A stretch of DNA of 64,000 bases from positions 15,528 to 79,527 of the forward strand of contig JBBREP010000004.1 in NCBI GenBank assembly GCA_038202885.1, written 5' to 3'. A model generated the notes under the pieces. It ran no database searches. It worked only from the letters and a program-made list of their open reading frames with translations, and was not told the origin of the DNA. A program made the position numbers and the translations under genes. How positions within the stretch are numbered: position 1 is the stretch's first letter; each line of letters starts with the position of its first letter. Below, in pieces: positions 3,845-60,448 of the stretch. The stretch is from Acidimicrobiia bacterium (GTDB lineage Bacteria > Actinomycetota > Acidimicrobiia > IMCC26256 > PALSA-610).

Positions 3845-4015
3845 GCTCGCCGCTCCTCGGGTCTCCTGGAGATTTAGAACCTGTTATAAATTGTGATGCG
3901 CGGTGTGAACAGGGACCAAAGTCCCATCCGCGCCGCATCCGCTTCCCATCCGTCCGATGCGCGCACCGCGGCATCGACGCCCGCCGCCCGACGCCCGAGA
4001 TACGAGGAACAGCAG

Positions 4016-5086
4016 ATGACGGACGCGCCTGTGCTTGACGAACTGGGCTTCTACGTGCTGGCAGGACAACCGTCGTGCTCGCGCGATCTCATCGAAGAGG
4101 TGCGCGACGCGGAAGCGCTCGGCCTGGGCACTGCCTTCATCTCGGAGCGGTACAACAAAAAGGAAGCGGCGACGCTGTCGGGCGCGGCCGGTGCGGTGAG
4201 CGAACACATCCGGATCGAAACCGCGGCGACGAACCACAACACACGACACCCGATCGTCACCGCTGGCTACGCGCGCACCATGCAGAGCCTGACCAACGGA
4301 CGGTTCGTGTTGGGACTGGGCCGCGGCGTGCCGCTGCTCCAAGATGCGTTCGGGATCGGTCGCATCACCACAGCGCAGATCGAGGACTTCGTCGGGCTCA
4401 TGCGTCGCCTATTTCGCGGCGAAGTGATCTTCGGCCACGACGGACCGGCCGGAAAGTTCCCCGTGCTGCATCTCGACTCGGCACTCGACGAACACCTGCC
4501 GATGAGCCTTGTGGCGTTCGGGCCCAACTCGCTCGAACTCGCTGGTCGCTGCTTCGACGAGGTCATTTTGCACACCTACTTCACCGATGAGACCACGCAC
4601 CGTTGCGTGCAGACGGTGAAACGTGCGGCCGAGCGCGCTGGTCGTGACCCTGCGGCGGTACGCGTCTGGTCGTGCTTCGCCACGATCGGCGATCACCTTC
4701 CCGCCGAGACGCGCCTCATGAAATCCGTCGGGCGTCTGGCCACGTACCTCCAGGGTTACGGCGATCTCCTGGTCCGCACCAACGGTTGGGATCCCGAAGT
4801 GCTCCAGCGGTTCCTCGCCGATGACGTCGTCAGGAGCGTGCCGGGGCTCGATACCGTCGGGACCACCGCACAACTCGAGCACGTGGCAACGTTGATCCCC
4901 GAGCAGTGGTTCGCGGCGAGCGCAACGGGCAACCCGGCGCAGTGTGTGGCTTCTGTACGCCACCAGTTCGCGCTCGGGTGCGACGGCGTGATCCTGCACG
5001 GGTGCAGCCCCGACGAGCTACGCCCCATCATCACCGAGTACCAAGCCACCGCCCCAAGGTTTTCCTCTGCACCAGACGGCGTGTAG
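4016..5086 (+). CDS. LLM-class F420/flavin-dependent oxidoreductase
   Basis: ORF 3893..5086 trimmed to the ATG at 4016, which follows GAGGAA. Luciferase-like fold motifs. The stop TAG lies inside repeat copy A. Confidence 0.75.
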   Translation: MTDAPVLDELGFYVLAGQPSCSRDLIEEVRDAEALGLGTAFISERYNKKEAATLSGAAGAVSEHIRIETAATNHNTRHPIVTAGYARTMQSLTNGRFVLGLGRGVPLLQDAFGIGRITTAQIEDFVGLMRRLFRGEVIFGHDGPAGKFPVLHLDSALDEHLPMSLVAFGPNSLELAGRCFDEVILHTYFTDETTHRCVQTVKRAAERAGRDPAAVRVWSCFATIGDHLPAETRLMKSVGRLATYLQGYGDLLVRTNGWDPEVLQRFLADDVVRSVPGLDTVGTTAQLEHVATLIPEQWFAASATGNPAQCVASVRHQFALGCDGVILHGCSPDELRPIITEYQATAPRFSSAPDGV

Positions 5087-5110
5087 CGCCGTGAGGTGCA
5101 ATCAGACTGC
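5058..5110 (+). repeat. MIRU-like 55-nt intercistronic repeat, copy A (contains an imperfect hairpin and overlaps the upstream stop codon)
   Basis: Sequence ggttttcctctgcaccagacggcgtgtagcgccgtgaggtgcaatcagactgc. About 85% identical to copies at 33039..33092 (+) and 17308..17366 (-). Confidence 0.7.
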
Positions 5111-5192
5111 CCCCACTGGCCCTTTGCTGGCCCCGCTGGCCGGCATAGGACAGAGATGGAAGAATGCCTGCCGGCCGACACAGGAGGCGTAC

Positions 5193-13914: not shown

Positions 13915-16209
13915 TCAATCATCCACGCTGTGTTGCACTGCGAGCGTGATCTCGCGGATCGTATCGGCGTCGGTGATCTTGCGTCCAAGCCGATCGCGCA
14001 CGTAGAACGCGTCGAGCACGTGGCTGCCCATGGTGTTGACGCGTGCCGATCGGATGTCGAGATCGAAGTCGGCGAACGCGGCCGTAACTCGGAAAAGGAC
14101 GCCGACCCCGTCCACGGCTCGCACGTCGATCACGGTTGCGGTATCCGACACATCGTTGTCGAACGCGACCGTCGTCCGGGCGTCATGCACGGGGCCGCGC
14201 CGTCGTTCGTAACGTCGTGCCCGGTCGGCAACTCGCGCGCGCAGCGCCAATCCCTCACCGAGCGCGCGCGCGAGGTCATCAGAGATGGCCGACCACGCCA
14301 GCTCGTTGCCGAACGGATCGTCGACCGAAAACACCGACAAGGCTCGTCCGGAGTCGCTGGAGTATGCCGTGGCTGTCGTGACATCGAGGCCATGCAACGC
14401 CAACACGCCAGCCACGCGGCTGAAGATGCCGGGCCGGTCGTCGGTCATCACAGTCAGGACGTTGGCGTCACCAGTGATACGCGTGCCGGGCGCCTTCAGT
14501 GCATCGAGATGGGCAACCGTCGGGAACTCGGCGGCCTCGGCGGCGCCACTCGCGCCGCTGCGCAGGAGCCGGTCGGCGCGTTCGACGAGCAGCGCGACGA
14601 GTCGAGCCTTGCTCGGCCCCCACGCGGTTGGTCCCGTCGCGAGCGAGTCGGCCTCGGTGAGCGCGGCGAGTAACGACAACGTCTCTGCATCGAGCACGCG
14701 CTCGGCAACATGTCGGATCGTGGCTGGGTCGTCGAGGTCGCGCCTCGTCGCGATCTCCGACAACAAGAGGTGTTGTTCGATCAGGCGCACGACGGTGTTG
14801 ATGTCGCCATCGGCGCAGCCCATGCGCGCCAACACGTCGCGAGCGACCGGGATGCCTACTTCAGTGTGATCGCCGGCGTAGCCCTTGCCGATGTCATGCA
14901 GGAGCGCGGCAAGCACAAGCAGGTCGGGACGCCGCACCCGACCGGCAACCCGTGCCGCATTGGCAGCGGTTTCGAGCAAATGACGATCCACGGTGAATCG
15001 GTGATAGGCGTTGCGTTGCGGCTTACTGCGCACCATCGACCACTCCGGCAGCATTGCGGTGAGCGCGCCGCAACGATCGAGCGCCTCGAGCGCGCCAATC
15101 GCAGGTCGCCCGGCGAGCAGCAACCCGACAAAGAGTTCGCGCATCTCCGCAGGCCAGTGCGCTCCTGATGCAACGACGTGTTCGCCGAGCGCGCTGAGCG
15201 CGTCGCGATCGATCGTCGCTGCGTGTTCCACAGCAAGGTTCGCGATGCGCAACCCGAGCAGCGGATCGTCGGTCGGCAGCTCGCCGGCAAGCGTGTGCAC
15301 CCGTGTGCCGCGCAGAACGATCCCAGGCCCAAGTGGTCGATCGCGCTGCGAACGGCGTGCAAGTCGAACGCGTGTCGGATCGGCGACACGTTGCCAAGTA
15401 TCGTCGCCGATCCAACTGATCGTTCGTGCTGCGGTCGCGACCCGCGCCATCAACGCGTCGGCGTCAGCATCGCCGCACGCACGGGCCAGAACATCTTGAT
15501 CCTGCAACGCAACGATATTGCTCGCTCGACCCGTGTAGCGCTGGAGTTCGACGCGCACTGCGAGCAATGTCGCATAGGCAACGTTCAGTTCTTCGATGTC
15601 GCCGGGGCGAAGCGTCGGTTGCGCCGCTTCGAGCCAGAACAACGAATGCACATCGCGTAACCCGCCCCGTCCCTCCTTGATGTCTGGTTCGAGCGTGAAG
15701 GCGACGTCGTTGACGCTCGCGTGTCGGTCGATGACACGCGCCGTCAGCGCGGGCACGCGCTTTCGCGCGAGTTCCTGCCACCGCGCCCGCGAGCGCGAGG
15801 CGAGTTCCTCGATGAGTTCGCGGTCTCCTGCGATATGACGCGTGGAGAGCAATGCCGTTGCCGCGTCGAGATCGCGGTCGCCAAGGGCGACAAGTTCGGT
15901 GACGGTGCCGACGTTGTGGCCGAGCTTGAAATCGGAGTCCCAGATCGGATACCAGATCTGTTCCGCGATCGCCGCGATCTCAGGGCGGCCCCGATGCACG
16001 AGCACGAGGTCGAGATCGCTCTGTGGGCAGAGTTCGGCGCGCCCGAATCCGCCGACGGCGGCGAGGGCCACGTCGTGGGCGCCGATCGCGGCCAGCTGGT
16101 CGGCGAACATCGCCTGAAGCCACCCGTCGACCAGGTTGCTGTAACGCCGGGACCACACCGGACCGGTCAGCGTGCGGTCGGCCAGCAGCGGCGCACGATC
16201 GAGCTTCAC
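13915..16209 (-). CDS. glnD: [protein-PII] uridylyltransferase / uridylyl-removing enzyme
   Basis: Nucleotidyltransferase motif 'AVGGFGRAELCPQSDLDLVLV', HD domain 'HDIGKG', two C-terminal ACT-like regions. GTG start. Confidence 0.85.
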   Translation of the reverse strand: MKLDRAPLLADRTLTGPVWSRRYSNLVDGWLQAMFADQLAAIGAHDVALAAVGGFGRAELCPQSDLDLVLVHRGRPEIAAIAEQIWYPIWDSDFKLGHNVGTVTELVALGDRDLDAATALLSTRHIAGDRELIEELASRSRARWQELARKRVPALTARVIDRHASVNDVAFTLEPDIKEGRGGLRDVHSLFWLEAAQPTLRPGDIEELNVAYATLLAVRVELQRYTGRASNIVALQDQDVLARACGDADADALMARVATAARTISWIGDDTWQRVADPTRVRLARRSQRDRPLGPGIVLRGTRVHTLAGELPTDDPLLGLRIANLAVEHAATIDRDALSALGEHVVASGAHWPAEMRELFVGLLLAGRPAIGALEALDRCGALTAMLPEWSMVRSKPQRNAYHRFTVDRHLLETAANAARVAGRVRRPDLLVLAALLHDIGKGYAGDHTEVGIPVARDVLARMGCADGDINTVVRLIEQHLLLSEIATRRDLDDPATIRHVAERVLDAETLSLLAALTEADSLATGPTAWGPSKARLVALLVERADRLLRSGASGAAEAAEFPTVAHLDALKAPGTRITGDANVLTVMTDDRPGIFSRVAGVLALHGLDVTTATAYSSDSGRALSVFSVDDPFGNELAWSAISDDLARALGEGLALRARVADRARRYERRRGPVHDARTTVAFDNDVSDTATVIDVRAVDGVGVLFRVTAAFADFDLDIRSARVNTMGSHVLDAFYVRDRLGRKITDADTIREITLAVQHSVDD

Positions 16210-16452
16210 GCGGGCGAGGCTACGGGTGCGTCAGGGTCCCCTGTGCACCTGGTCGCGCATCCGTCAGGCCCGAGACGGGCCGAACAGATGTCCGTCAGTG
16301 ATGCAAAGATGTCGTAACACGCGGCACATCGCTTGGAAACGGTCGGTCCTTAGGTTCTCAGGTCATGATCAGATATGACGTGCTCGACGGGTGTCGCACA
16401 CCATCACCGAACGTGTCGCCCTCGACGACGGACATTCGCACTCTTTGTGTAG

Positions 16453-16803
<351 letters not shown>

Positions 16804-16854: not shown

Positions 16855-17244
16855 TTAGGCCGCGAGGCCGGCCTGGCGCATGTATTGGCCGAGATCGAAG
16901 TAGTCGCGCCACGCGGCGATCTTGCCGTCGACGATCTCGAAGACGCCCATGACGGGAAGTTCGATGGTGCGTTCGGGCTGCACGAACGTATCGACCCGCT
17001 CCGTGAGCACGACATTGTCATGGGCCACGAGGTGGCGCACCTGGAATTCGATGCGCTCGACCCCGGTCGTGAACATCTCCATCATCGATCGGATCGCTTC
17101 GACACCGACCACGGGGTCGATCGGGATGTTGTGGTACACGGCGTCCGGCGTGAAATAGCCGAGCAGCTCGTCGAGATCGAGGCGCGCCCATGCGGCGCAG
17201 AAGTCGCTGACGATGTCGGAGGCGGTGCGCGTGGTCTGGCTCAT
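16855..17244 (-). CDS. SnoaL-like / NTF2-fold protein (limonene-epoxide-hydrolase-like)
   Basis: 129 aa 'SDIVSDFCAAWARLDLDELLGYFTPDAVYHNIP...GKIAAWRDYFDL', typical of the NTF2-like superfamily. Confidence 0.6.
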   Translation of the reverse strand: MSQTTRTASDIVSDFCAAWARLDLDELLGYFTPDAVYHNIPIDPVVGVEAIRSMMEMFTTGVERIEFQVRHLVAHDNVVLTERVDTFVQPERTIELPVMGVFEIVDGKIAAWRDYFDLGQYMRQAGLAA

Positions 17245-17307
17245 GCGGCCAGTCTGGCGCGCCCGATCGCGGGCGCGCCAGACCACGGCGTCAACCGAGG
17301 CCTCGAG

Positions 17308-17366
17308 CGCACTTTGATTGCACTGGGCGGCGCTGTACGCCGTCAGGTGCAGAGGAAAACGGCTTG
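17308..17366 (-). repeat. MIRU-like intercistronic repeat, copy C (reverse orientation)
   Basis: The reverse complement reads ccacaagccgttttcctctgcacctgacggcgtacagcgccgcccagtgcaatcaaagtgcgc, which aligns with copies A and B. Confidence 0.65.
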
Positions 17367-17777
17367 TGGGGTTTATGGAGGGGGGGTTATGGGGTGTCTC
17401 GGGTGATGACGGGGTCGGCGTGGAGTCGGGAGAAGGCCGCTCGGAACGCGGCCTCGGCTGCGTCGGGATCGCCGAGCGCGGTGCGCAGCTCCGAGCCGGC
17501 CGGCAGGGCCGAAGCGATCAGGCTTTCCGCCCCTGGCGACGCGTAGGTGCGGCCATCGGTCCACAGGAACCACTCGCGGGTGCCACTCAATGTCGCCTGG
17601 GCCGAAACTCGCATCGTTGCCTCTTCCTCGTGACCAACGTACGGCGCGTGGCGCCGGCCCGAGCATCGCTGTGACGCAGATCACTCCGGCTCTCGGTCAA
17701 CAAGCGCGACATCGCGTAGCGTCTCGCCCCGGACCCGCGGGGCCACGGTGCGGACCACGACGAGGAGCGGTTCTCAG

Positions 17778-25806: not shown

Positions 25807-26064
25807 GGTTCCCACCTTGTGTGAGCAAAACATCGGCGGGCCTACGCGCGTGCCCAATGGCACATTCGACCTGGTCCATTCGGTTGACGTATTGACGCTG
25901 CGGGCAGGTGTGCTCAGGATCAGCCCGACAACAAACCCCGCGGCTGGCAGCAGTTCCAGTGTGGACGAGGTGTTGATTCGCAGGCGTGAACTGGTCGCCT
26001 GAGCCTGCGGGGAGCCAGTGGCGAAACCGGCGTCCGGCCGCACAACTGGAACAGGAGCATCATC

Positions 26065-26295
26065 ATGGGCAACCTTCTCCGCGGCGTTCGCCGCGCCGCT
26101 GTCTCGCTCTGTCTCATCGCCGCCGCCGGCGGGATGGCCGCGGCCTCGGGCGCGGGTGCGCACCGCGAGGCTGGCATCAAGTGGAACCTCGTGCAGGTCA
26201 TACCGCGAACGCCCGCCACGACGTCATCGCCGGCGCCGGGCACCCTGAACAAGCCGCGGCCGATCGCGTCGACGAAGGGCATTCGCTGGTCCTAG
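26065..26295 (+). CDS. small predicted secreted protein (signal peptide plus 44-aa mature part)
   Basis: AGGAGC sits 6 nt before the ATG. 'MGNLLRGVRRAAVSLCLIAAAGGMAAASGAGA' looks like a signal peptide. 84 nt upstream of the large membrane protein gene. Confidence 0.35.
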   Translation: MGNLLRGVRRAAVSLCLIAAAGGMAAASGAGAHREAGIKWNLVQVIPRTPATTSSPAPGTLNKPRPIASTKGIRWS

Positions 26296-30974: not shown

Positions 30975-33026
30975 ATGACGGGCGTGGCGATCATTGTTGT
31001 CGTCGTTGTTGTGTGTGTCGTACTCATGGTGTTTCTGTCGTTGCACAGCATCGGGCCGACCGAAATCGGCCTGGTGGTGAAACGGTTTTCGTTGAAAAAC
31101 ATCAAGGACGACAACCCGATCGCATTCCACGGCGAGGCAGGCTTCCAGGCCGATCTGTTGATGCCCGGATTGCGATTCAAGCTCTGGCCACTGTTCGGCG
31201 TCACGAAGTATCCGTGGGTGCAGGTGCCCGCCGGCGAGATCGCCGTCGTGGTTGCGCAGGTGGGTGAGCCGCTGCCGATCGGTGCCAAGAGCGCGCGGTA
31301 CGCCCCCGCGTTCGGCGATTTCTCGAACGTGCGCACGTTCATCACAGGCGGTGGCGGCAAGGGTGTGCAACGACCGGTGCTGCCTCCGGGAACACTGGTA
31401 CCGATCCACCCGGTGGCCTTCCTGGTCCTCACGATGCGCCAGGTGTACGGCGTGCCGGTCGCGCCCGAAATGCAGCAGCGCGCCAAGCAAACGGGCGGCG
31501 TGTTACGCAGCGAATCATTCGGCCTGTCGGCCGAACAGCTCCGGGTGATGGTCATCTCGCCGGTCGGACCGCAGGACATGGTGGGGATCGTCATCGCACT
31601 CGAAGGTGAGCCGCTGCACTCGGGCGACATCGCGAGTCGCCTCGGTGGTTTCGAGGATGTGGTCGCCGCCGAGCAGGTCGGCGCAACCGACGCCGACGTC
31701 ATCGAGCTGCTGCTGGGCAGCAAGAACACGTTGCACAACAACTACCAAGACTTCCAGCGGTTTCTCGACAACGGCGGCAAGATCGGTCTGCAGCACGACC
31801 CGCTGCTCTACGGCGCGTACCTGCTGAACCCGTTCCTGATCCAGGTCGAACTCGTTCCGATGCTCATCGTGAATCAGGGCGAAGTTGCAGTGGTGAAGGG
31901 CTACGTGGGCCTGCCCACCTCCGACACCTCGGGCGCTGAGTTCAAGTTCGGCGCGATCGTGCGCCCGGGCCACCGCGGCATCTGGCAGGAACCACTGCGC
32001 ACCGGCAAATATCCGATCAACCCGCGTGTGTACGCGGCCGAGATCGTGCCCACGTCGATTCTCACGCTCAACTGGAGCGACACCGTGAGCTCCGCGCACA
32101 GCCTCGACGCGAACCTGAAAGCGATCGACGGCAAGAGCCGCGAAGGTTTCGTGTTCACGATCGAGCTCCAAGTGCAGATCCACGTGCCCGACACGCATGC
32201 GCCCAAGGTGATCTCGATGGTGGGCACGATGCTCAACCTCGTGAACGAGGTGTTGCAGTCCGCCGTTGGCAACCACTTCCGCAACACCCTGCAAGACCTC
32301 GAAGCCGTCCGTTTCATCGAGACCCGCATGCAGGTGCAGCAGGCCGCGCTGGCAGCAGTGACGCAGTACCTGAGCGCGTACGAGGTCGAGACGAAGGGCG
32401 TATACCTCCAAGACGTCGTGTTCCCGCCCGAGCTTGTCGAGGTGTTGACCAAGCGCGAGATCGCGAACCAGGAAAAGGCAACGTTCGCCGAAGAAGAGCG
32501 CGCCCAAGTCGTGCGAATCCAGATGGAAAAGGCCAAGGGCACGGCCGAGATGCAAAAGACGCTCGCGAGTTCGCAGGTCGGCATCGACATCAAGGCGAAC
32601 GAGGCCCAAGCTCGCCAGGCAACGGCGCGAGGCGAAGCCGCCTATGTGGAGTTGACCGGTAAGGCCGAGGCAACCAGGACTGAAGCGATCGGTCTGGCGG
32701 AGGCCAAGGCGGTCGAGGCGCTCGGGCTGGCACGCGCCCAGGGCTTCGACGCGCAGCGCCGGGCGATCGGTGAGATGGCCACCGCACTCGTCGCGGTGGC
32801 GAACGCGGTCGCCGAAGGCCACATCACCGTGGTGCCCGAGGTTCTGGTCACCGGTGGTGGCGGCGCGCTCGACGGCCTCGCCGCAACGCTGATGCGCACC
32901 CTGCGCGGCACTGGCGGCCCGCCCGCGCCCGACGAAGCCGACAAGATCGACGAGCGCGAAGACCTACCGGTCCCAGCCGAAATGGTCGCGGCCGGCAAAG
33001 AGCTCAACACCCCCCACACAGCCTGA
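30975..33026 (+). CDS. flotillin-like SPFH/Band-7 family protein (long form, 683 aa)
   Basis: N-terminal TM 'VAIIVVVVVVCVVLMVFL', SPFH domain, then an EA-rich coiled coil 'EAQARQATARGEAAYVELTGKAEATRTEAIGLAEAKAVEALGLA'. Confidence 0.85.
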   Translation: MTGVAIIVVVVVVCVVLMVFLSLHSIGPTEIGLVVKRFSLKNIKDDNPIAFHGEAGFQADLLMPGLRFKLWPLFGVTKYPWVQVPAGEIAVVVAQVGEPLPIGAKSARYAPAFGDFSNVRTFITGGGGKGVQRPVLPPGTLVPIHPVAFLVLTMRQVYGVPVAPEMQQRAKQTGGVLRSESFGLSAEQLRVMVISPVGPQDMVGIVIALEGEPLHSGDIASRLGGFEDVVAAEQVGATDADVIELLLGSKNTLHNNYQDFQRFLDNGGKIGLQHDPLLYGAYLLNPFLIQVELVPMLIVNQGEVAVVKGYVGLPTSDTSGAEFKFGAIVRPGHRGIWQEPLRTGKYPINPRVYAAEIVPTSILTLNWSDTVSSAHSLDANLKAIDGKSREGFVFTIELQVQIHVPDTHAPKVISMVGTMLNLVNEVLQSAVGNHFRNTLQDLEAVRFIETRMQVQQAALAAVTQYLSAYEVETKGVYLQDVVFPPELVEVLTKREIANQEKATFAEEERAQVVRIQMEKAKGTAEMQKTLASSQVGIDIKANEAQARQATARGEAAYVELTGKAEATRTEAIGLAEAKAVEALGLARAQGFDAQRRAIGEMATALVAVANAVAEGHITVVPEVLVTGGGGALDGLAATLMRTLRGTGGPPAPDEADKIDEREDLPVPAEMVAAGKELNTPHTA

Positions 33027-33038
33027 CGCCCCCCAAAG

Positions 33039-33092
33039 CGGTTTTCCTCTTCACCCGACGGCGTGTAGCGCCGTCGGGTGCAATCAAACCGC
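33039..33092 (+). repeat. MIRU-like intercistronic repeat, copy B (perfect 12-bp stem cacccgacggcg/cgccgtcgggtg)
   Basis: Sequence cggttttcctcttcacccgacggcgtgtagcgccgtcgggtgcaatcaaaccgc, between the flotillin stop and the serine-hydrolase start. Confidence 0.7.
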
Positions 33093-33120
33093 GGGTCAAC
33101 ACACGCTGCGCCCGCCGCGC

Positions 33121-34275
33121 ATGTACGGTCGGCATGTGGATACTGACCTGGACATTGACAATGTGGAAGCGGCTGGCTTCGACCGGGAGAAGGTCGACGC
33201 GCTGGTGGCGCGAGCGCGCAAAGAGGTCGACGAGGAGCGGCTGCCGTCGTGTCAGTTCGCGCTCCTGCGCAACGGCGTGGTGGGTGCCGCGGCAACGTTC
33301 GGCGCGCCGAGCGATGCTCGCTATGTGATCTTTTCGGCCACGAAGGCCGTCGTGGCCTTCGCCACGTGGATCGCGATCGACGAGGGCCATATCCGCGTGG
33401 ATGCCAAGGTCGCCGACTACATCCCCGAGTTCGCCTCGAACGGCAAGGACGTCGTCACGGTCGAACAAGTGATGTTGCACACATCGGGGTTTCCGCACGC
33501 GCCGCTCGGTGCACCGCAGTGGGACACGCGCGAGGGTCGCCTCGCCGCGTTCGCGCGCTGGAGGCTCAACTGGGAACCGGGGACTCGCTTCGAATATCAC
33601 CCGACCTCGGCGCACTGGGTGCTCGCCGAGCTGATCGAGCGCGCCACAGCAACGCCGTACGCGTCGTTCGTTGCCGAACGCGTGGTGCAACCGCTCGGCC
33701 TGGCACGGCTGCAGCTTGGTGTTCCGCCGGCCGACCAGGACGACGTGATGGAACTGTCGAAGGTTGGCGAACTCGCGTCGCCCGATGAGTTGGAAGCTGC
33801 GATCGGAGTGCGCTCGCTCCCGATCTCGGAGGTGACGGCAGAGGTGTTGCTCCAGTTCAACCGGTCCGCGGACCGCGCGCTCGGCGTACCGGGTGGCGGT
33901 GGCATCTCCGATGCCGTCGATCTGGCGCGGTTCTACCAAGCGCTGCTCGCCGGCGGCGCTGGCCTGTTGTCGGCTTCGGCGATGTACGAATTCACCGTGC
34001 ACGTGCGCAACACCCTTCCCGACTACATGGGTACGCCCGCGAACCGCACGCTCGGCCTGGTGGTAGCGGGCGACGACGGACGCTCGTCGTTGCGCGGGAT
34101 GGGCAAAACCGTGTCGCCGCGCGCGTTCGGCCACAACGGCGCCGGCGGCCAGATCGCGTTCGCGGACCCCGACACCGGCATCTCGTTCGTCTATCTCACG
34201 AACGGGCTGGAACAGCACGTGCTGCGCGAAGGACGCCGCACCACCGCGATCGCGAGCCGCGCCGCCGTCTGCTGA
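33121..34275 (+). CDS. serine hydrolase, beta-lactamase/esterase family
   Basis: 'FSATKAVVAFA' S-x-x-K motif, 384 aa. Confidence 0.85.
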   Translation: MYGRHVDTDLDIDNVEAAGFDREKVDALVARARKEVDEERLPSCQFALLRNGVVGAAATFGAPSDARYVIFSATKAVVAFATWIAIDEGHIRVDAKVADYIPEFASNGKDVVTVEQVMLHTSGFPHAPLGAPQWDTREGRLAAFARWRLNWEPGTRFEYHPTSAHWVLAELIERATATPYASFVAERVVQPLGLARLQLGVPPADQDDVMELSKVGELASPDELEAAIGVRSLPISEVTAEVLLQFNRSADRALGVPGGGGISDAVDLARFYQALLAGGAGLLSASAMYEFTVHVRNTLPDYMGTPANRTLGLVVAGDDGRSSLRGMGKTVSPRAFGHNGAGGQIAFADPDTGISFVYLTNGLEQHVLREGRRTTAIASRAAVC

Positions 34276-34333
34276 GCACATGGCTGGCTGGCCTACAGAG
34301 CAGGGGTGCTGCCGCCCCGATACTGTGCGCGCC

Positions 34334-35872
34334 ATGAAGGTTGCCTTGACGGTCAACGATTTCCTGGAGCGCGCCGAGCTTGTGTACGGCAACCGGATCG
34401 GGCTCATCGACGAGCCGGATCAGCCGGCGCCGTCGTGGGGTTCGCTCACCTGGCGTGACGTGGCGGCGCGGGCGCGAGCCCAGGCCGCCGGGCTCGACGC
34501 GCTCGGTATCGACGAAGGCGAGCGCGTCGCCATCGTGTCGCACAACTCGGCTCGCCTGATGACGTCGTTCTTCGGAGTGGCCGGATCGGGTCGGATTCTC
34601 GTGCCGATCAACTTCCGGCTCAACGCCGAAGAGATCGGCTACATCGTCGAGCATTGCGGAGCGTCGATGTTGCTCATCGACCCAGAACTCGTTGCGGCGC
34701 TGGGCTCGGTGGACGCGCCGCACCGCTTCGTCATCGGTGCCGAAGCCGACGAACAGCTGTATCGCTACGACCGCGAGCCACGCGGCTGGAGCCGGCCCGA
34801 CGAGGATGCGACTGCGACGATCAACTACACGAGTGGCACGACCGCCCGACCGAAGGGCGTGCAACTCACGCACCGTAATGTGTGGCTCAACGCGACCACG
34901 TTCGGCTGGCAGACCGGCGTGAACGATCGTGACGTGTTGCTGCACACTCTGCCGATGTTCCATTGCAACGGCTGGGGGATGCCGTTTGCAGTCACCGGCA
35001 TGGGCGGTACCCACGTAGTGCTGCGCAAGATCGACGGTGCCGAGGTGCTACGTCGCGTCGCGGCGCATGACGTCACGCTGATGTGTGGCGCGCCCGCCGT
35101 GGTGTCGGCTGTGCTCGATGCCGCGACTGAGTGGGACGGCGCGATTCCCGGCGCTGGTCGCACGCGCATCGTCGTTGCGGGCGCACCGCCACCGACGCGC
35201 ACGATCGAACGGGTCGAGACCGAGCTCGGGTGGGAGTTCATTCAGATCTATGGCCTCACCGAAACCGCGCCGTTGCTCACGATGAATCGCAGCCGTGCTG
35301 AGTACGACGAGCTCGCGCCGGCCGCCCGGGCCGCGAAGCTCGGCCGGGCCGGAGCGCCGGCGATCGGCGTCACGGTGCAGATCGACGACGAGGGTGAGGT
35401 GCTCGCCCGCTCGAACGTCGTCATGGAGGGGTACTGGCAACAGCCCGAGGCCACCGCCGACGCGATCGTCGACGGTTTCTTCCACACCGGTGACGGTGGG
35501 ATGATCGACGACGAGCACTACCTTTCGATCCTCGACCGCAAGAAGGACGTGATCATCTCGGGCGGTGAGAACGTGTCGTCGATCGAGGTCGAAGACTGCG
35601 TGTTCTCGCACACCGCGGTTGCCGAGGTCGCCGTGATCGGCGTGCCGCACGAGAAGTGGGGCGAGACCGTGATGGCGCTCGTCGTACTGGCGCCGGGCTC
35701 GTCGGCGACCGAGGCCGAGATCATCGCGCACTGCCGGGAGCACCTCGCGCACTACAAGTGCCCGACATCGGTCGAGTTCCGTACCGAACTCGCACGCACG
35801 GCAACGGGCAAGCTGCAGAAGTTCAAGCTCAGGGCCGCGTTCTGGGAGGGTCGCGAACGGCTCGTGAATTGA
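34334..35872 (+). CDS. acyl-CoA synthetase (AMP-forming, FadD-like)
   Basis: 'YTSGTTARPKGV', 'YGLTETAP', 'GEN...K' motifs. ATG at 34334. Confidence 0.85.
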   Translation: MKVALTVNDFLERAELVYGNRIGLIDEPDQPAPSWGSLTWRDVAARARAQAAGLDALGIDEGERVAIVSHNSARLMTSFFGVAGSGRILVPINFRLNAEEIGYIVEHCGASMLLIDPELVAALGSVDAPHRFVIGAEADEQLYRYDREPRGWSRPDEDATATINYTSGTTARPKGVQLTHRNVWLNATTFGWQTGVNDRDVLLHTLPMFHCNGWGMPFAVTGMGGTHVVLRKIDGAEVLRRVAAHDVTLMCGAPAVVSAVLDAATEWDGAIPGAGRTRIVVAGAPPPTRTIERVETELGWEFIQIYGLTETAPLLTMNRSRAEYDELAPAARAAKLGRAGAPAIGVTVQIDDEGEVLARSNVVMEGYWQQPEATADAIVDGFFHTGDGGMIDDEHYLSILDRKKDVIISGGENVSSIEVEDCVFSHTAVAEVAVIGVPHEKWGETVMALVVLAPGSSATEAEIIAHCREHLAHYKCPTSVEFRTELARTATGKLQKFKLRAAFWEGRERLVN

Positions 35873-36840
35873 GCGAGCATCGGCGGCGGTTCACGACACC
35901 GTTTCCTGTCGATCTCGCAGGCAATCTCGGGCCGATCTGGCGAGGCCGCGGTGACCCGACGTGCCGTCTCCAGGCTACGGAAGTGTGGCGCGCACAGCAC
36001 ACGCCGCTCGGGCCAGCAACCGTGCATGTGCGCGTCGAGGCGGACGCCCGAACGGTGCATGCGCGCGCGTGGGGCGACGGTGCCGAGTGGTCGATCGCGC
36101 ACGCCGACGATCTCGTCGGCGCCTCCGATGATCCGCACGCGTTTCAACCGTCTGATCCCATGCTTCGCTCACTTGTCGCGCGCCTCCCGCGCCTTCGTCT
36201 CGCGCGCACCGTTGCTGTCTACGACATAGCGGTCGCGGCGGTCATCGATCAGCGCGTGAGCGGGCGTGAAGCGCGCGGCACATGGAACGCGCTCGTGCGG
36301 CGTTTCGGTACGCCCGCACCCGGGCCAACCACTGGTCGACCGCCAGGACTGCGTTTGTTGCCGTCGCCCGATGTGCTTGCGGGGCTTGGTGATGCGGCGC
36401 GCCGCACGCTCGGGCTCGAAATGCGACGTGGAGTCGCGCTCTCGTCGGTCGCGGCCGATGCCCGCGGCCTCGAGCGCGCCGCGACGCTGGGTGCCGACGT
36501 ACTCGATCGCCGACTCCAGTCCATCGCCGGGGTGGGCGTGTGGACCTCGGCGACGGTGCGGGCGTACGCGCTCGGCGACACTGACGCGCTGCCCCTCGGC
36601 GACTGGCACCTGCCCCACGAGATCGGTGCGGCCTTGGCTGGTGAACGGCGCGCCGACGACGCGCGGATGGTCGAACTGCTGGAGCCGTATCGTCCGCAGC
36701 GATTCCGAGTCGTTCGCCTCGTGCTTGCGTCGGGCGCAACGCTGGCGCGTCGAGCGCCTCGGGCCGAGATTCCCGACCTCTTGCGCAAGGAGGCCACCGG
36801 GCGCCCGTTCACGGTTCGTCGGCGGTTGCGCTTCGAGTGA
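35869..36840 (+). CDS. HhH-GPD DNA glycosylase (AlkA-like 3-methyladenine glycosylase II)
   Basis: 'LQSIAGVGVWTSATVRAYALGDTDALPLGDWHL' helix-hairpin-helix GPD motif with the catalytic Asp. The start is uncertain (TTG at 35869 or a downstream GTG). Confidence 0.65.
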   Translation: MSEHRRRFTTPFPVDLAGNLGPIWRGRGDPTCRLQATEVWRAQHTPLGPATVHVRVEADARTVHARAWGDGAEWSIAHADDLVGASDDPHAFQPSDPMLRSLVARLPRLRLARTVAVYDIAVAAVIDQRVSGREARGTWNALVRRFGTPAPGPTTGRPPGLRLLPSPDVLAGLGDAARRTLGLEMRRGVALSSVAADARGLERAATLGADVLDRRLQSIAGVGVWTSATVRAYALGDTDALPLGDWHLPHEIGAALAGERRADDARMVELLEPYRPQRFRVVRLVLASGATLARRAPRAEIPDLLRKEATGRPFTVRRRLRFE

Positions 36841-36862
36841 GCCTTGTGCGTATTGCCCCGCG

Positions 36863-36908
36863 CCGGACGTGCAAGCCGGACGTGCAAGCCGGACGTGCAA
36901 GCCGGGGG
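36863..36908. repeat. 13-nt tandem repeat (ccggacgtgcaag) x 3.5 in the intergenic region
   Basis: Reads cgccGGACGTGCAAGccGGACGTGCAAGccGGACGTGCAAGccggggg, between the glycosylase stop (36840) and the ATG at 36985. Confidence 0.8.
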
Positions 36909-36984
36909 CGGCGTTTGGGCCCGGTGGTCAGGAGCCAGCAAGCGGGGTACTGTTTGCATTCATCGTGCAACCCCGGGGGAACGC

Positions 36985-38103
36985 ATGAACCCACGTAAGA
37001 CCGGCACCGCCATGGTGCTTGCTGGCGCCGCGACGCAAGCCGTCGGAATGCTGTGGGAGGCGATCCGTCGTTCGGGCGCGTCGGCCAAGAGCACCGACCT
37101 GTTCGACCTCGGTGTCGCGGCCCACGCGCTGTTCTTCGCCGGCATCGCAGTGGTGGTGCTCGGCGCGGCGATGATGTTCCTCGGCCCCATCCTCTACGCG
37201 CCGGGCGCGCAACCAGGCCGGCGCTTCGCGCAATTGCTCGCGCCCGTCGTCGCGTTCGCTGGCATCGCGGGTTGCGCGTCGGCTGCCGATCGGTCGGCAA
37301 CTCCGATCGCCGTGCGCGCAGCAAACAGCAGCGGCAAGCTGGCCGCAGGCGCTCCCGCAGCGTCGGTGGCAAGTCCACCCACGACCGCGCACGTGCACGA
37401 TCACGGCTCGATCATCGCCGGTACGGGCGTGGGCGATTCGCCCTGCGAGAAGGCGTCGGTGAAGCCGGCCTCCCCAGGAGAGGTTGGCGACGGCACCGGC
37501 GGCGCCGCGAGCAACACCGATGCCGAAGGTGGCCACGGTCACCGCGGCATGCTCAAGCAGACGCCGTTGACGACCGCCGAACGCAAGTTGCTGATCACCC
37601 AGATGCAACAGGCGCGTAGCGTCGTTGCGAAGTATCCGACAGTCGCGGCCGGCGAGGCTGCGGGCTACCGACAGTCGACGGTCTTCGTGCCGTGCATCGG
37701 TGCGCACTACACGAACATGAAGCTCGTCACGCGCTTCGATCCTGCCGCGCCGTCGGAGTTGTTGTTCGACGGCACCTCGCCTGATTCCAAGATCGTCGGA
37801 CTCAGCTATCTCGTGTGGCACCCGGGTGGTCCGCCGGAGGGCTTCGCCGGCAAGAACGACCTGTTCCACCAGCACAACGCGAACGGCGGCCTGTGCTTGA
37901 AGGGTGGGCTGGTCATCGGCGGCGAAGCAATGAAGGTGTCCGACTGTGAGAAAGCTGGCGGCAAGAAGTCGTCGAAGCTCATGGCCGACGTCTACATGGC
38001 GCACGCCTGGGTTGCTCCCGGGTGGGAGTGCAGTTGGGGCGTGTTCGCAGGAGAGTGTCCCGAACTCGGCGGCAAACTCGGCGGCACCGCCTTCGATAAC
38101 TAG
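36985..38103 (+). CDS. membrane-anchored His/Cys-rich protein of unknown function
   Basis: ATG after GGGGGA. Three N-terminal TM helices, then 'HVHDHGS', 'GGHGHRG' and several Cys pairs ('WECSWGVFAGECPE'). Confidence 0.5.
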   Translation: MNPRKTGTAMVLAGAATQAVGMLWEAIRRSGASAKSTDLFDLGVAAHALFFAGIAVVVLGAAMMFLGPILYAPGAQPGRRFAQLLAPVVAFAGIAGCASAADRSATPIAVRAANSSGKLAAGAPAASVASPPTTAHVHDHGSIIAGTGVGDSPCEKASVKPASPGEVGDGTGGAASNTDAEGGHGHRGMLKQTPLTTAERKLLITQMQQARSVVAKYPTVAAGEAAGYRQSTVFVPCIGAHYTNMKLVTRFDPAAPSELLFDGTSPDSKIVGLSYLVWHPGGPPEGFAGKNDLFHQHNANGGLCLKGGLVIGGEAMKVSDCEKAGGKKSSKLMADVYMAHAWVAPGWECSWGVFAGECPELGGKLGGTAFDN

Positions 38104-38271
38104 TACCGCATCAGCAAACGTTTGCGGCGTTCTGGCGGCCGGACGACGCCGCTGTTTCGTCCTCGTCCTCGACGTAGGGCCCCGGCTATGCCATCGTCCT
38201 GCGTCCTTGCCTGCACCGCCGCCGACTCGCCACAACACTCGCAACGTTCACTGACACGGCACTCGATAGAT

Positions 38272-38973
38272 CTACTCCAGGGGTGACCAGCGGCTGGTGC
38301 GCAGGAGACGACTCTCCCAGTCGTCGCGCACGGCGAGCGCGTCGTGCATCCAGGTGCCCGGCGCCTGAACCTCGGGCGGTAGGTCGCGGGTGAACAAACC
38401 GGCGAGCCGTTCGGGGTAGAGCACCCGCTGCCACAGCACCACCTCTCGACGGCGTGGCGCGCCGAGTGCGGCCTGGAACACGGCGGCGAGTTCGAGCAGC
38501 GAACGCTCGGAATGTTCTTGGAGACTCGGCGCGTAGTGCGTGCGGGCCGCGTCGAGATACTCGTCGAGCTTTGCTTCATGGGGCCAGGCGCTGTCTTCCA
38601 TGAACAACGTCGGTGCGCGCTCGGCACCGTCGGTGGGGATGGCGTCGAGCGTGGGAAGCGGTGGCGACCACGGCACGGGGAGCAACAGTTTGCCGGTGAC
38701 GTCGTGACGCAACGTGTCGGCGTGTGCGGCCCACGCGCGCAGGTCGCCGTCCTGAACGCGGCGCGCGAGTCGTTCGTAGGCGTTGCCGTCGGCGAGTGCG
38801 GTGATCGTGACATGGAGATACGCGCGGTTGGTGCCGAACGCCAACTTGAGATGCCACGCGAGGCGTGCGTCGTCGCCGGTCGCGAGTGCAGCCATCCAAC
38901 CGTCGCGCACGTGGAGTTCGAACTCGTCATCTCGGCCGCCGACCAGGCGATGCACCTCATGCAACAACAACAT
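38272..38973 (-). CDS. hypothetical protein
   Basis: 233 aa, no recognisable motif. Confidence 0.45.
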   Translation of the reverse strand: MLLLHEVHRLVGGRDDEFELHVRDGWMAALATGDDARLAWHLKLAFGTNRAYLHVTITALADGNAYERLARRVQDGDLRAWAAHADTLRHDVTGKLLLPVPWSPPLPTLDAIPTDGAERAPTLFMEDSAWPHEAKLDEYLDAARTHYAPSLQEHSERSLLELAAVFQAALGAPRRREVVLWQRVLYPERLAGLFTRDLPPEVQAPGTWMHDALAVRDDWESRLLRTSRWSPLE

Positions 38974-39003
38974 GTACGAAAGTGTCGCACGCCAACGCCC
39001 ACC

Positions 39004-39047
39004 GATGCGTCGTTTGACCGCTGTATAGAGGGGTCAAACGACGCATC
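39004..39047. repeat. perfect 16-bp-arm palindrome overlapping the TGA stop of the UGSC gene
   Basis: Reads GATGCGTCGTTTGACC-gctgtatagagg-GGTCAAACGACGCATC. Its arms resemble those of the palindrome at 50293..50340. Confidence 0.8.
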
Positions 39048-39576
39048 AGGGTGGTGAGGGGGTGCGGGTGAGGGCGGCGATGAGGGCTGGGAAGGCGGCG
39101 TCGGCGAGCGCGCGGAGTTCGGCGTTGGTGCGGTCTTGAATCGGGTGCGCCACGAACACCGATGCGGGGTCGGCGCCGAGCGCAGCTGACTGTGCCGCGG
39201 CCGCGGTGATGAACTCGGTCGATGCCACGAACACGGTCGGTACGCCGACCGATTCGAGGTTGACGGTGTCGTGCACACTGCACGACGTGCATGAGCCTCA
39301 GTCGGCGAGCGCTTCGATCACCACGTCGCACTTCGCCGCGATCTCGTGTCGAAGGTCGACGGGCGCGGGCTTCGTGAACGTCGGTTTGGCGAACCGCTCG
39401 ACCGTGCTGCCGTGCTCGTGCAACAACTCCTCGAGCCGATCGAGGAACACGCTGCCGCGCGGTTTGCTGATGTCGAGCAACCCCACGCGCGTGCCGCGCA
39501 CGTGCGCGGGACGGCTCGCTCGCGTGCGCGTCAGCGCCGCTTGTTCTCCGGTGGGATCGAGGAGCACATGGGTCAT
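39046..39576 (-). CDS. UGSC-family selenoprotein candidate (in-frame TGA = Sec at 39298..39300)
   Basis: Track ORFs 39298..39576 and 39046..39276 are in the same frame, separated by a TGA. Read-through gives '...EALAD-U-GSCTSCSVHDTVNLE...' with the motif U-G-S-C. A hairpin lies 11 nt downstream. ATGA overlap with the upstream gene. Confidence 0.6.
39268..39286 (-). promoter_or_regulatory. candidate bacterial SECIS hairpin
   Basis: On the coding strand: UGA-ggcucaugcac-GUCGUGCA-gug-UGCACGAC. An 8-bp stem with its apical loop ~21 nt from the UGA. Confidence 0.5.
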
Positions 39577-41051
39577 GGCGTGATCTCCTTCGTGACGATC
39601 TCACTACCGATCGCGCCGCTTGCCCAGCCGCCGATCACTGCCGAGAACATACCGGCTTCGCCGCCCGCGTGAACGATGACGAGTCCACCGTCGCGGAACT
39701 TCGCCAAGGTCGACGTCGCGAAACCCTCCGGAAGTCCCTCGCTGATGCCGCCCGCGCCCCGAACGAGTTCAGCGCCCGGGCACTGCAGCAGCGTGGTCAG
39801 TTCCTCGCGCAGGCGCGCCTTCGACCAACCCGCGTCGCGAAAGACGCGGGCGTGCTCGGGTGATACCACCAGCATGGCGTCCCACACCATGACGTTCTTC
39901 GGGTGCCCGACCGTACGCAGGCATGCAGCAAACGTGCGCGAGAGTGACTCCGGTGTGCGGCTCAATTGGTCGACGACGCCTTGTACGCCCGAGGCGGCGA
40001 ACAACGTGATGGCGCTCTGGGCCGCCGACATCCCAGCTCGCTCCACGTGCAGCGGCTCCCACGGCGAGTCGTGCTCGCGCTCGGCGAAGCAGAACGTGTA
40101 CTTGCCCGGATTGCCGAGGGTGGCCCGGTCGATCTCGCCCGGACGACCGCCACCGACATTGCGGATCACAAGTTGCAGCGCTCGTCCGATCGTGGCGTTC
40201 GCACGGTTGCCCTGGCCGAGCGCGTTGACGCCGCTGTTCATTCCAATCGAGCGACTGATCGGCCCGTTCACAAGCACCAATGGGCCGGAAAACCACGTGG
40301 TGCACAGCAGTCCGTGCGCGTTGAATTCGTCGGTGCAGGCCGCCTCTACCGCGGCGAGCACCACGGGAAGATATTCGGGCGTGCAGCCGGCCATCACCGC
40401 GTTCACCGCGACCTTCTCGACGGTGCACTCCACGAGGTCGGGAGGTATCACCGCCACGATGTCCTGCGGATCTCGCGTGGTGCCGGCGAGCATCCGCGCA
40501 ACTCGTTGCGCCGTCGGCGGAACGACGGGGAGGCCGTCGGTGAAGCCGCGTGCAAACAGTGCCTCCATCTCGTCCTCGGACGAACCGAGATCGAGGTGAC
40601 GGCTCCGTAGTTGGCTCACCGTGCGTGCGATGGCGCGCTGCTCGACGATTTCGGGCTCGACGCTGCGTGAGCCGCAACCAGGGCGGAAGTCGGGGAGCCC
40701 GGCACCGATCCCGGCGAGGCCGGTCAGCTGTTCCCACTGCTCGCGTGACCAGCCGACGGTGCGCCTCGTTTCCCGGCCCGCGACGACACGCGCGAGTGTG
40801 GGCACGGTGTCGATGTCCAGCGCGAACGACACGTCGAGATCGCGATCGTCACGAACGACGATGGTGCCGAGGTTGTCGGGGAACGTCGGGTCGTCCTGGC
40901 TGAACACGGCGACGAGCACGCCTGCGTCCGCGAGTTCGCGCAGCACGGGCGCAACGAACTCACACGTCGGGCAATCGCGTTTCACGATGGCGATGACGCC
41001 GTCGGGGATCGAAGTGAGTGGCGTACTCGACCCGTCGACGTCGACCGTCAT
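39573..41051 (-). CDS. thioredoxin-like (CPTC) domain fused to a large uncharacterised domain
   Basis: N-terminal 'AIVKRDCPTCEFVAPVLRELADAGV' CxxC thioredoxin fold plus ~400 aa of unknown function. Start codon 2 nt after the serC stop; stop overlaps the UGSC start. Confidence 0.7.
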   Translation of the reverse strand: MTVDVDGSSTPLTSIPDGVIAIVKRDCPTCEFVAPVLRELADAGVLVAVFSQDDPTFPDNLGTIVVRDDRDLDVSFALDIDTVPTLARVVAGRETRRTVGWSREQWEQLTGLAGIGAGLPDFRPGCGSRSVEPEIVEQRAIARTVSQLRSRHLDLGSSEDEMEALFARGFTDGLPVVPPTAQRVARMLAGTTRDPQDIVAVIPPDLVECTVEKVAVNAVMAGCTPEYLPVVLAAVEAACTDEFNAHGLLCTTWFSGPLVLVNGPISRSIGMNSGVNALGQGNRANATIGRALQLVIRNVGGGRPGEIDRATLGNPGKYTFCFAEREHDSPWEPLHVERAGMSAAQSAITLFAASGVQGVVDQLSRTPESLSRTFAACLRTVGHPKNVMVWDAMLVVSPEHARVFRDAGWSKARLREELTTLLQCPGAELVRGAGGISEGLPEGFATSTLAKFRDGGLVIVHAGGEAGMFSAVIGGWASGAIGSEIVTKEITP

Positions 41052-41053
41052 GG

Positions 41054-42199
41054 TCAGCCCGCGAACCGTTCGATGACGTAGTCGATCGAGCGCGTGAGTT
41101 GGGCCACATCGTCGGGGTCGATCGCGGGGAACAGCGCGATGCGGAGTTGGTTGCGACCGAGTTTGCGGTACGGATCGACGTCGAGGATGCCGTTGGCGCG
41201 TAGGGCGGCCACCACCTGTTCGGCGTCGATGGCCGGATCGAAGTCGATCGTCGCGGTCACGTGACTGCGCGCGGCCTCGGCCACGAACGGCGTGGCGTAC
41301 TTGTGGGCCTCAGCCCACCCGTAGACGATCCCAGCCGATTCGTCGCAACGAGTCGCGCATGCCTCGAGGCCACCGATCGCCAGCATCCACTCGACCTGGT
41401 GGGCGAGCAGGAAGATCGTCGCGAGCGCCGGCGTGTTGTACGTCTGGTTGAGCCGAGACTGGGCGAGCGCGATCCCAAGGTCGAGCGATGCCGGTCGCCA
41501 CCGATCACTCGCTGCGAGTCGCTCGATGCGCGCGATGGCCGCGGGTGAACACAGCGTGATCCACAACCCGCCGTCGCCACCGAAGCATTTCTGGGGCGCG
41601 AAGTAGTACACGTCGGTGTCGGCCGCGTCGAACCGCAAACCGCCCGCGCCCGACGTGGCGTCGACCAGTACGAGTGCGGTGTCGGCTGTGGTGCCGACGG
41701 GTCGCCGGATCTCGCAGACTGCGCCGGTCGAGGTCTCGTTGTGGGGGTAGCAATACGCGTCGATGCCAGGCGTGGCGTGACACGGCGTGGGCACGAGCCC
41801 GGGCGCGGTGTCGATGACCTCGGGATCTTCGAGATGCGGCGCGGCGCGTGTGACGGCCGCGAACTTGGCCGAGAACTCGCCGATCGTCACGTGTTGGCTG
41901 CGGCGCTCGATGAGTCCGAAGCTCGCGGCATCCCAGAATGAGGTGGTGCCGCCATTGCCGAGCAGTACCTCGTAGCCGTCGGGCAGCGAGAAGAGATCGC
42001 GCATGCCGTCACGAACCCGCCCGACGACCGAACGCACGGTGGGCTTGCGGTGGCTCGTACCAAGGAAACCCGTGGACGCGTCGGCGAGTGCAAGCACAGC
42101 TTCGGGCCGCACCTTGGAAGGTCCGGAGCCGAAGCGGCCGTCACGCGGTCGGAGCGCGTCGGGAATGATGATCTCGGGGTTGTCCGCCGTGTCGGCCAC
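41054..42199 (-). CDS. serC: phosphoserine aminotransferase (actinobacterial short type)
   Basis: 381 aa class-V aminotransferase, 'FAPQKCFGGDGGLW' PLP-Lys region, architecture like mycobacterial SerC. Confidence 0.8.
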   Translation of the reverse strand: MADTADNPEIIIPDALRPRDGRFGSGPSKVRPEAVLALADASTGFLGTSHRKPTVRSVVGRVRDGMRDLFSLPDGYEVLLGNGGTTSFWDAASFGLIERRSQHVTIGEFSAKFAAVTRAAPHLEDPEVIDTAPGLVPTPCHATPGIDAYCYPHNETSTGAVCEIRRPVGTTADTALVLVDATSGAGGLRFDAADTDVYYFAPQKCFGGDGGLWITLCSPAAIARIERLAASDRWRPASLDLGIALAQSRLNQTYNTPALATIFLLAHQVEWMLAIGGLEACATRCDESAGIVYGWAEAHKYATPFVAEAARSHVTATIDFDPAIDAEQVVAALRANGILDVDPYRKLGRNQLRIALFPAIDPDDVAQLTRSIDYVIERFAG

Positions 42200-42208
42200 G
42201 CAACGAGG

Positions 42209-42871
42209 TTACGGGGATACCTCGACCCACGCGGAACCGGTTTCGTTCGTTGGCCCCGAATCGGCGGCGTCGATGGTCTCCAACGCCGTGACCTCGGCGT
42301 ACCAGCGCGGGTGTTCGTGGCGCGCCCATGCTCGCGGGACGCGCCCCGTGACCATGCCCCGCAGCGATGCCGGCCTCGACAGAGCGATCAGGATGTGGCC
42401 GAACGTGACGAGGAGCAGCGCGAACGCGAACCAGCGGTGTGTGAAGTCGGCACCGCTGCGCCAGTGCAACGCGAACACTGTGGGGAAGCGCAGAAACGTG
42501 CCCGTCACGGGCATCACGATGATGCACGCCCCGATGAACGCGGCGTTCAGCTTCTGGCCGGGGTTGAATTTGCCGATGCGCGCCTGGGGTTTCGTCGACC
42601 GACGCCACCAGCGCCGATCGTCGGCCGTCCAGCGCGAGAAGCGATGCAGGTCGCTGCGGAGTTGCTTGCCGGCGTGCGTGGCGATGCCCAACAAGATCGG
42701 AATCGGCATCGCGTAACCGACCCACGTGTGGATTTCTTTGATGCTGAGGCGATTCCCGACCCATCCGGTGCCGGGCGCGCCGTACAGGGTGAAGCCGGTG
42801 CCGAGCAGTACGAGGAAGAGCAACCCGTTCGTCCAGTGCACCGCGCGTTCGACACGATCGAATCGCGCCAT
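42209..42871 (-). CDS. cytochrome b561/b-type di-heme membrane protein (MsrQ/YedZ-like partner)
   Basis: 'RFDRVERAVHWTNGLLFLVLLGTGF' with conserved His in TM helices. Start trimmed to 'MARFDRV'. Confidence 0.65.
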   Translation of the reverse strand: MARFDRVERAVHWTNGLLFLVLLGTGFTLYGAPGTGWVGNRLSIKEIHTWVGYAMPIPILLGIATHAGKQLRSDLHRFSRWTADDRRWWRRSTKPQARIGKFNPGQKLNAAFIGACIIVMPVTGTFLRFPTVFALHWRSGADFTHRWFAFALLLVTFGHILIALSRPASLRGMVTGRVPRAWARHEHPRWYAEVTALETIDAADSGPTNETGSAWVEVSP

Positions 42872-48539: not shown

Positions 48540-48540
48540 T

Positions 48541-60444: not shown

Positions 60445-60448
60445 GACG

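Follow-up and report, generated by a model that had tools for sequence, protein, structure and literature searches.

In Proteobacteria, Firmicutes and mycobacteria, small interspersed repeats of palindromic sequence are a familiar feature. To our knowledge, which here reflects a limited literature search, there are hardly any descriptions of them from Acidimicrobiia, a class represented mainly by metagenome-assembled genomes. The REP and BIME elements of Enterobacteria and Pseudomonas and the SMAG elements of Stenotrophomonas maltophilia are short, GC-rich, imperfect palindromes scattered over extragenic spacers. Transcribed together with the gene upstream, they alter the stability of the mRNA through their hairpin, and they are regarded as non-autonomous mobile DNA (PMC3184786). 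The MIRU, a repeat of 40-100 bp, lies between co-transcribed genes and shows filled and empty sites across related species (PMC3184786).

Here we describe a repeat that occurs three times in a 64-kb stretch of DNA from an uncultured acidimicrobiian (the stretch is referred to below as the window), which has a G+C content of 66.6% and encodes proteins most similar to those of Acidimicrobiia MAGs. The repeat is best filed with REP, SMAG, the MITEs and MIRU, in the wide group of small interspersed repeats of palindromic type. Like REP and SMAG it is a short, GC-rich, imperfect palindrome in an extragenic position, but its host belongs to the Acidimicrobiia, and it lies between co-directional genes, in contrast to the convergent-gene bias reported for Pseudomonas REPs. 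With MITEs such as Correia/CREE, ERIC/IRU, RUP and BOX it shares the size class of 50-150 nt, the ability of the whole element to fold back on itself, insertion within or beside the ends of genes, and the occasional provision of stop codons or C-terminal tails to neighbouring open reading frames (ORFs). It differs from them in that its terminal inverted repeats are just 7 bp long and intact in one copy (B) alone, in the lack of a consistent target-site duplication, and in that no parent insertion sequence is seen within the window. The resemblance to MIRU lies in the co-directional spacers of an actinobacterium, in a site (that of copy B) that is empty in two relatives, and in an upstream stop codon placed inside the element (copy A). 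Finally, a stable GC-rich hairpin right after a stop codon recalls an intrinsic terminator, from which the element differs in having no 3' U-tract.

Copies and anatomy of the element

An earlier note on this DNA had reported three copies of a hairpin repeat of ~55 nt with ~85% identity. All three copies are recovered where it had placed them, by pattern, HMM and covariance model alike (Table 1). The unit proved longer than had been proposed, about 64-69 nt, since the conserved sequence also takes in a C-rich stretch, CCCC..CAAG(C), on the 5' side and reaches YGC on the 3' side, and the identity spans 81-89% over the three pairwise alignments (A/B, 89% over 53 nt; A/C, 83% over 52 nt; B/C, 81% over 64 nt). 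A degenerate pattern derived from the left flank and the left stem arm, GTTTTCCTCTNCACCNNNCGGCG, with up to three mismatches allowed, has exactly three sites in the window (5059 +, 33041 + and 17360 -), whereas 0.01 matches are expected by chance in a shuffled window. An nhmmer search with a profile HMM of the three copies returned each of them at E ~1e-18, with no fourth copy in the window and nothing else below E = 0.004; the weaker matches are the reverse strand of the palindromes and chance loci known from the flank-pattern scans. The covariance model R1, built from the three copies and the hairpin and run with filters off, scored them at 94, 85 and 83 bits and likewise found no fourth copy in the window, where the next non-self match reached 15 bits. 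Solo flanks of the repeat were found nowhere else in the window, and the known density is three copies per 64 kb.

Table 1. Location, hairpin and neighbouring genes of the three copies (window coordinates)
Copy	Position	Strand	Hairpin and loop	State of the stem	Upstream gene	Downstream gene
A	5047..5113	+	hairpin 5069-5099; loop TGTAG 5082-5086	two adjacent mismatches	LLM-class F420 oxidoreductase, 3893-5086 (TAG stop 5084-5086)	M28 peptidase, start GTG 5193
B	33027..33095	+	12-bp stem 33052-33063 with 33069-33080; loop TGTAG	best-preserved	Band7/SPFH, 30975-33026	β-lactamase family, start ATG 33121 or GTG 33136
C	17306..17374	-	hairpin 17320-17350; loop TACAG	most decayed; three sense-strand mismatches	75-aa ORF, 17387-17614	LEH (limonene-epoxide-hydrolase)/SnoaL-like, 16855-17244 or 16855-17286

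From 5' to 3', the element consists of a C-rich stretch ending in CAAG(C), the sequence (G/C)GTTTTCCTCT, a GC-rich stem of 12-13 bp (CACCNGACGGCG) around a 5-nt loop, the return arm, GTGCAATCA(A/G)A and a final YGC; its two ends read CCCC..CAAGCGGTTTTCC and GCAATCAAACCGC. The flanks GTTTTCCTCT and GTGCAATCA, of 10 nt and 9 nt, are invariant in all three copies. With regard to the stem, the earlier description holds for copy B (12 bp, perfect) and copy A (two mismatches), but copy C has three mismatches on its sense strand instead of two, and these become one mismatch and two G-U pairs on the opposite strand. Copy B possesses an additional outer stem of 7 bp, GCGGTTT/AAACCGC, which is perfect; in A and C this outer stem is degraded, with some pairs broken, reduced to wobble or falling at an alignment gap. 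Copy B thereby folds over its whole length into a single hairpin, interrupted by an asymmetric internal loop in which UCCUCUU faces CAAUC, and its RNA has a minimum free energy (MFE) of -38.5 kcal/mol (z = -6.2), whereas the sense strand of copy C folds poorly (z = -1.1) and its antisense strand folds better. Across the 20 proposed pairs, all differences among the three copies disrupt pairing, and none is compensated on the other arm. Since the stem differences are all disruptive and copy B is a near-perfect long palindrome, the copies look like products of decay from a palindromic master. With the little power that three sequences offer, the stem pattern yields no positive sign that RNA structure has been under selection.

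A terminator scan found no intrinsic terminator-like site at any of the three loci: the stem is followed by CAAUCA, with a U-rich run before the stem and an A-rich run after it, which is the reverse of the layout of a terminator. A promoter scan of the same loci found no σ70-type promoter. By inspection, the copies lack a consistent target-site duplication (GCGG borders B alone), and no matching direct repeats occur at the ends of A and C. An integron attC site, parS and dif were also considered and rejected by inspection, as neither R''/R' core sites nor a consensus match could be recognised.

Genomic setting and comparison with relatives

All three copies lie in sense orientation after a stop codon and ahead of the next co-directional gene, and the genes around them are functionally unrelated according to Pfam (LLM to M28 peptidase, Band7 to β-lactamase-like, small ORF to LEH). 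Copy A is the only one to overlap the upstream stop codon: it encodes the last 10 codons of the LLM gene (PRFSSAPDGV) together with the TAG stop, which sits in the hairpin loop as had been noticed earlier; the start of the M28 peptidase gene is preceded by AGGAGG. Copy B is found 13 nt past the stop of the Band7/SPFH gene and 29-44 nt ahead of the β-lactamase-like start. Copy C lies 13-20 nt downstream of the stop of the 75-aa ORF, for which one full-length homologue is known (56% identity, E = 1.5e-14). The downstream starts lie 22-83 nt past the element, and no copy overlaps a downstream start codon. Confinement to spacers between co-directional genes, as the earlier note had it, is thus borne out in three of three cases, which is suggestive at this number and depends for copy C on the 75-aa ORF. 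If ~47% of intergenic bases are assumed to lie in co-directional spacers, a figure taken from a rough gene map, the chance of three out of three is ~0.10, or ~0.013 when sense orientation is included. Since GC skew is positive throughout, the window is one replichore; copy C is inverted together with its genes despite this uniform skew, so orientation, at n=3, tracks transcription and not replication.

Hairpins are not a general habit of gene ends in this DNA. The 3' ends of genes in the window have a mean best MFE of -19.2 kcal/mol versus -18.6 kcal/mol for the background, and being no different from the background they lend no support to a general practice of terminator hairpins. Downstream of the reverse-strand string AGAGGAAAA, which the earlier note had called SD-like, the only ORFs are short (8, 10 and 60 codons) and not conserved, and the one of 60 codons runs antisense to a real gene; thus the string is not the ribosome-binding site (RBS) of any credible gene. 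A separate feature of the copy C spacer is a perfect 32-bp palindrome, GTCTGGCGCGCCCGATCGCGGGCGCGCCAGAC, at 17252-17283, which is unique in the window and lies between copy C and the ATG of the LEH/SnoaL-like gene, 8 nt from the probable ATG (17244). This palindrome may be an operator, a terminator of the small ORF or a hairpin that occludes the RBS.

Comparison with relatives is most direct at the site of copy B. The nearest non-self Band7 homologues are 84-86% identical, and the succession of Band7 and β-lactamase-like genes is kept in the two closest syntenic relatives, L007 (GCA_017882905.1) and L011. The two genes are separated by 59 nt in L007, by 17 nt in L011 and by 94-109 nt in the window, and the element is not present in the orthologous spacer of either relative; that of L007 carries a different small hairpin. 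In addition, R1 found no copy in ~100 kb of non-redundant DNA of related Acidimicrobiia, where ~4.7 would be expected at the density of the window. At the site of copy A, the comparison is one of protein C-termini, the LLM orthologues of relatives having no M28 peptidase gene after them. These orthologues stop 2-9 residues past a conserved EY(R/Q)AT, after which the window protein continues with a 10-residue, element-encoded tail, PRFSSAPDGV*, and the NCBI-annotated protein P0121 carries an identical PRFSSAPDGV tail. By this comparison, the tail encoded by copy A has taken the place of the original C terminus of the LLM protein. The element was gained in this lineage, at unrelated sites and probably after the split from the nearest sequenced relatives.

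Some further observations concern the neighbourhood of copy B. A motif, TACGGTC(C)GG, is found 3-4 nt before the GTG of the β-lactamase-like gene in the window (33124-33132), in L007 (6779-6788) and in L011 (3699-3707), while the rest of the spacer around it is not alignable. Its conservation before the GTG suggests that the gene starts at GTG 33136 and not at ATG 33121. The order Band7, β-lactamase-like, two UGSC genes, aminotransferase-V and molybdopterin-oxidoreductase, with other genes interspersed, is kept in the relatives L007, L008 and L022 (compare 30975-43754 in the window). L008 and L022 have three extra minus-strand genes, one of them glyoxalase-like, between the Band7 and β-lactamase-like genes, and on account of these extra genes this spacer is a site of recurrent rearrangement in the clade.

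To assess the wider distribution, a flank pattern consisting of exact GTTTTCCTCTNCAC, a gap of 18-40 nt and exact GTGCAATC was used. It gave six matches in 185,579 species representative genomes and five in JGI metagenomes, in both cases about the number expected by chance and none with the hairpin. With flank matches in the species genomes at chance level, the element does not seem to be common to other bacteria, although diverged members of the family may have escaped because the flank pattern is exact. Two pattern scans of viral contigs gave zero matches, and blastn against plasmids and phages found no copy, with partial matches of 18-32 nt alone. Translations of the open frames across the element gave 27 word-sharing candidates in a protein database, none of which scored. 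No Rfam family matches the element at gathering thresholds; the best match in E-value mode is the ffh sRNA (20.6 bits versus a gathering score of 35), which is noise from the hairpin only.

Several further features of the window were recorded alongside. A second, unrelated repeat has a 46-nt unit, GGCGAGCGGGGGTGCAGCGAAGGAGCCCTTGGGGGCGCGAGCCGAA, arranged in tandem 2.3 times at 98% identity (45360-45465, +) with an internal sub-period of 23 nt; the array occupies the divergent spacer of a WS/DGAT gene and an α/β-hydrolase gene, and an inverted single copy, 93% complementary, lies at 48539-48581, just downstream of an SDR gene (48592-49365). Being both tandem and dispersed, this family is formally more MIRU/VNTR-like than the hairpin element. 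A c-di-GMP-II-GAG riboswitch (RF03169) is predicted at 25957-26041 (+), where it scores 57.7 bits (gathering score 40), and 23 nt beyond it comes an AGGAG-preceded ORF of ~76 aa (26065-26295, +) with a signal-peptide-like N terminus. The riboswitch is divergent from the gene of a GAF-GGDEF-EAL protein (23212-~25900, -), whose true start is probably further downstream, as the 983-aa ORF call overlaps the riboswitch. A perfect 13-nt tandem repeat, GCCGGACGTGCAA, present 3.4 times at 36862-36905, lies at the 5' end of the ORF 36844-38103, which has no Pfam match and whose start or frame is doubtful because the repeat period is not divisible by 3. The window also holds a complete kdp locus (52362-61144: a DUF4118 protein, KdpA, KdpB, KdpC, KdpD and a KdpE-like response regulator) and convergent P-II and GlnD genes (13915-16803), and it is rich in LLM/F420, SDR, amidohydrolase, Rieske and P450 genes.

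Origin of the element and alternative explanations

We favour, with a confidence slightly better than even, the reading that the element is a repeat of the REP/MITE type, palindromic, interspersed and non-autonomous, which is young and specific to this lineage and is kept as a tolerated and possibly useful intercistronic hairpin. This retains the general idea of the earlier note, a small hairpin repeat in short spacers between co-oriented genes, and gives up the identity with MIRU. According to this model, a master of ~65 nt would have been copied into unrelated intergenic sites after the lineage had split from its nearest sequenced relatives. The master would have comprised a 5' C-rich CAAG stretch, GTTTTCCTCT, a GC hairpin of 12-13 bp, GTGCAATCAAAC and YGC, would have been close to a long imperfect palindrome, and its copies would then have decayed through point mutation. 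Mobility itself is presumed from presence and absence between species alone. The mover may be a transposase or an HUH/RAYT-like protein, and it is placed elsewhere in the genome because no transposase, RAYT or IS200/IS605 gene was found by Pfam among the ~50 genes of the 64-kb window. Copies would persist where they do little harm, that is, right after a stop codon and in sense orientation. Where co-transcribed, they would add a stable hairpin to the mRNA, which by analogy with REP and SMAG elements may act as a barrier to 3' exonucleases or as a partial terminator between cistrons. The evidence base for this model is three copies, with clear terminal inverted repeats in B alone. As copy A demonstrates, the element is able to supply a gene with its stop codon and a protein with its C-terminal tail.

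One may argue that selection instead maintains the element as a cis-acting RNA module. It would be transcribed together with the flanking genes and serve the cell between cistrons, as a processing site, insulator or attenuator, possibly in the form of a hairpin that is recognised by a protein or an RNase and displays the single-stranded UCCUCU and CAAUC strands of its internal loop. The sense placement of all three copies between a stop and the next gene (~0.013 by chance), an orientation that follows transcription and not replication, and a stable fold, in copy B above all, would fit such a role. So would the contrast between a variable mid-stem and the invariant flanks that make up the internal loop, which could reflect selection on these flanks for a cellular function. 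Nevertheless, there is no covariation and all stem changes break pairs, copy C folds better in antisense than in sense, the neighbouring genes have no common function, no Rfam family matches, and the orthologous site of relatives lacks the element, so the downstream gene evidently needs no copy of it. Taken together, these points make a selected RNA module fairly unlikely. A more specific version, to which we give a still smaller share of belief, is an undescribed sense-strand RNA module of Acidimicrobiia that tunes or uncouples adjacent cistrons, or else a mobilisation that reads the direction of transcription. In the proposed module, the stable stem would show an invariant, anti-SD-like UUCCUCU opposite CAAUC in the internal loop and may act as a recognition site for an RNase or protein or through SD sequestration.

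A narrower hypothesis of origin, which we consider unlikely, ties the element to a particular mover, either as a REP mobilised by a RAYT or as a one-hairpin derivative of an IS200/IS605 end. Here an HUH Y1 transposase, encoded in another part of the genome, would recognise a single-stranded DNA hairpin together with a flanking guide or cleavage sequence. The reverse strand of the element starts with TTGAT, which we take to be the target pentanucleotide of ISDra2. The architecture of the element, a GC-rich imperfect palindrome with asymmetric conserved flanks, is the type of target that HUH Y1 enzymes recognise (for REP/RAYT systems see PMC3184786). On the other hand, the 64-kb window has no Y1_Tnp or RAYT gene, and the 5' foot of the palindrome reads TCT(G/T)CACC, without the conserved GT[AG]G-type tetranucleotide of REPs; GTAG occurs in the loop of A and B alone and is lost in C. 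The copies are also single, in contrast to the inverted REPIN pairs and BIME clusters of such systems, and both orientations are found among them in a single replichore, whereas insertion of IS200/IS605 elements favours the lagging-strand template, a point that carries the weight of n=3. A double-stranded site for a regulator or nucleoid-associated protein, with the 29-bp palindrome as the operator of a small hydrolase regulon, would account for the palindromic core, for copies 22-83 nt upstream of gene starts, and for downstream genes that all encode hydrolases (M28 peptidase, β-lactamase-like, epoxide-hydrolase-like). This is very improbable, since a unit of 64-69 nt with strongly asymmetric flanks far exceeds an operator in length, the half-sites of A and C have diverged asymmetrically, promoter-like sequence is absent nearby, a palindromic operator needs no strict sense orientation, and the orthologous β-lactamase-like gene of relatives lacks the site. 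Least credible of all is membership in the true mycobacterial MIRU family, even though the size class, the position between co-directional genes and the upstream stop inside copy A are similar. The element forms no tandem array at any copy (TRF), has no tetranucleotide direct repeats, and contains no ORF that bridges the upstream stop and the downstream start, the latter being overlapped by no copy. It is dominated by a strong central hairpin, and its host is an acidimicrobiian and not a Mycobacterium. A sequence relationship is likewise not seen in the flank-pattern scan of 185,579 species genomes, where matches are at chance level.

Significance for Acidimicrobiia genomes

As a lineage-specific palindromic repeat, the element is a modest addition to a known class and introduces no new principle. 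Its covariance model could nevertheless be of practical use. R1 could serve as a strain or lineage marker, and it could flag gene-calling artefacts, as copy A changes a protein C terminus and open frames cross the element. Applied to the full genome, R1 could also point the way to the enzyme that mobilises the element. Should the sense orientation after stop codons prove to hold genome-wide, the family would be a helpful system in which to examine whether transcription filters such repeats or is exploited by them.
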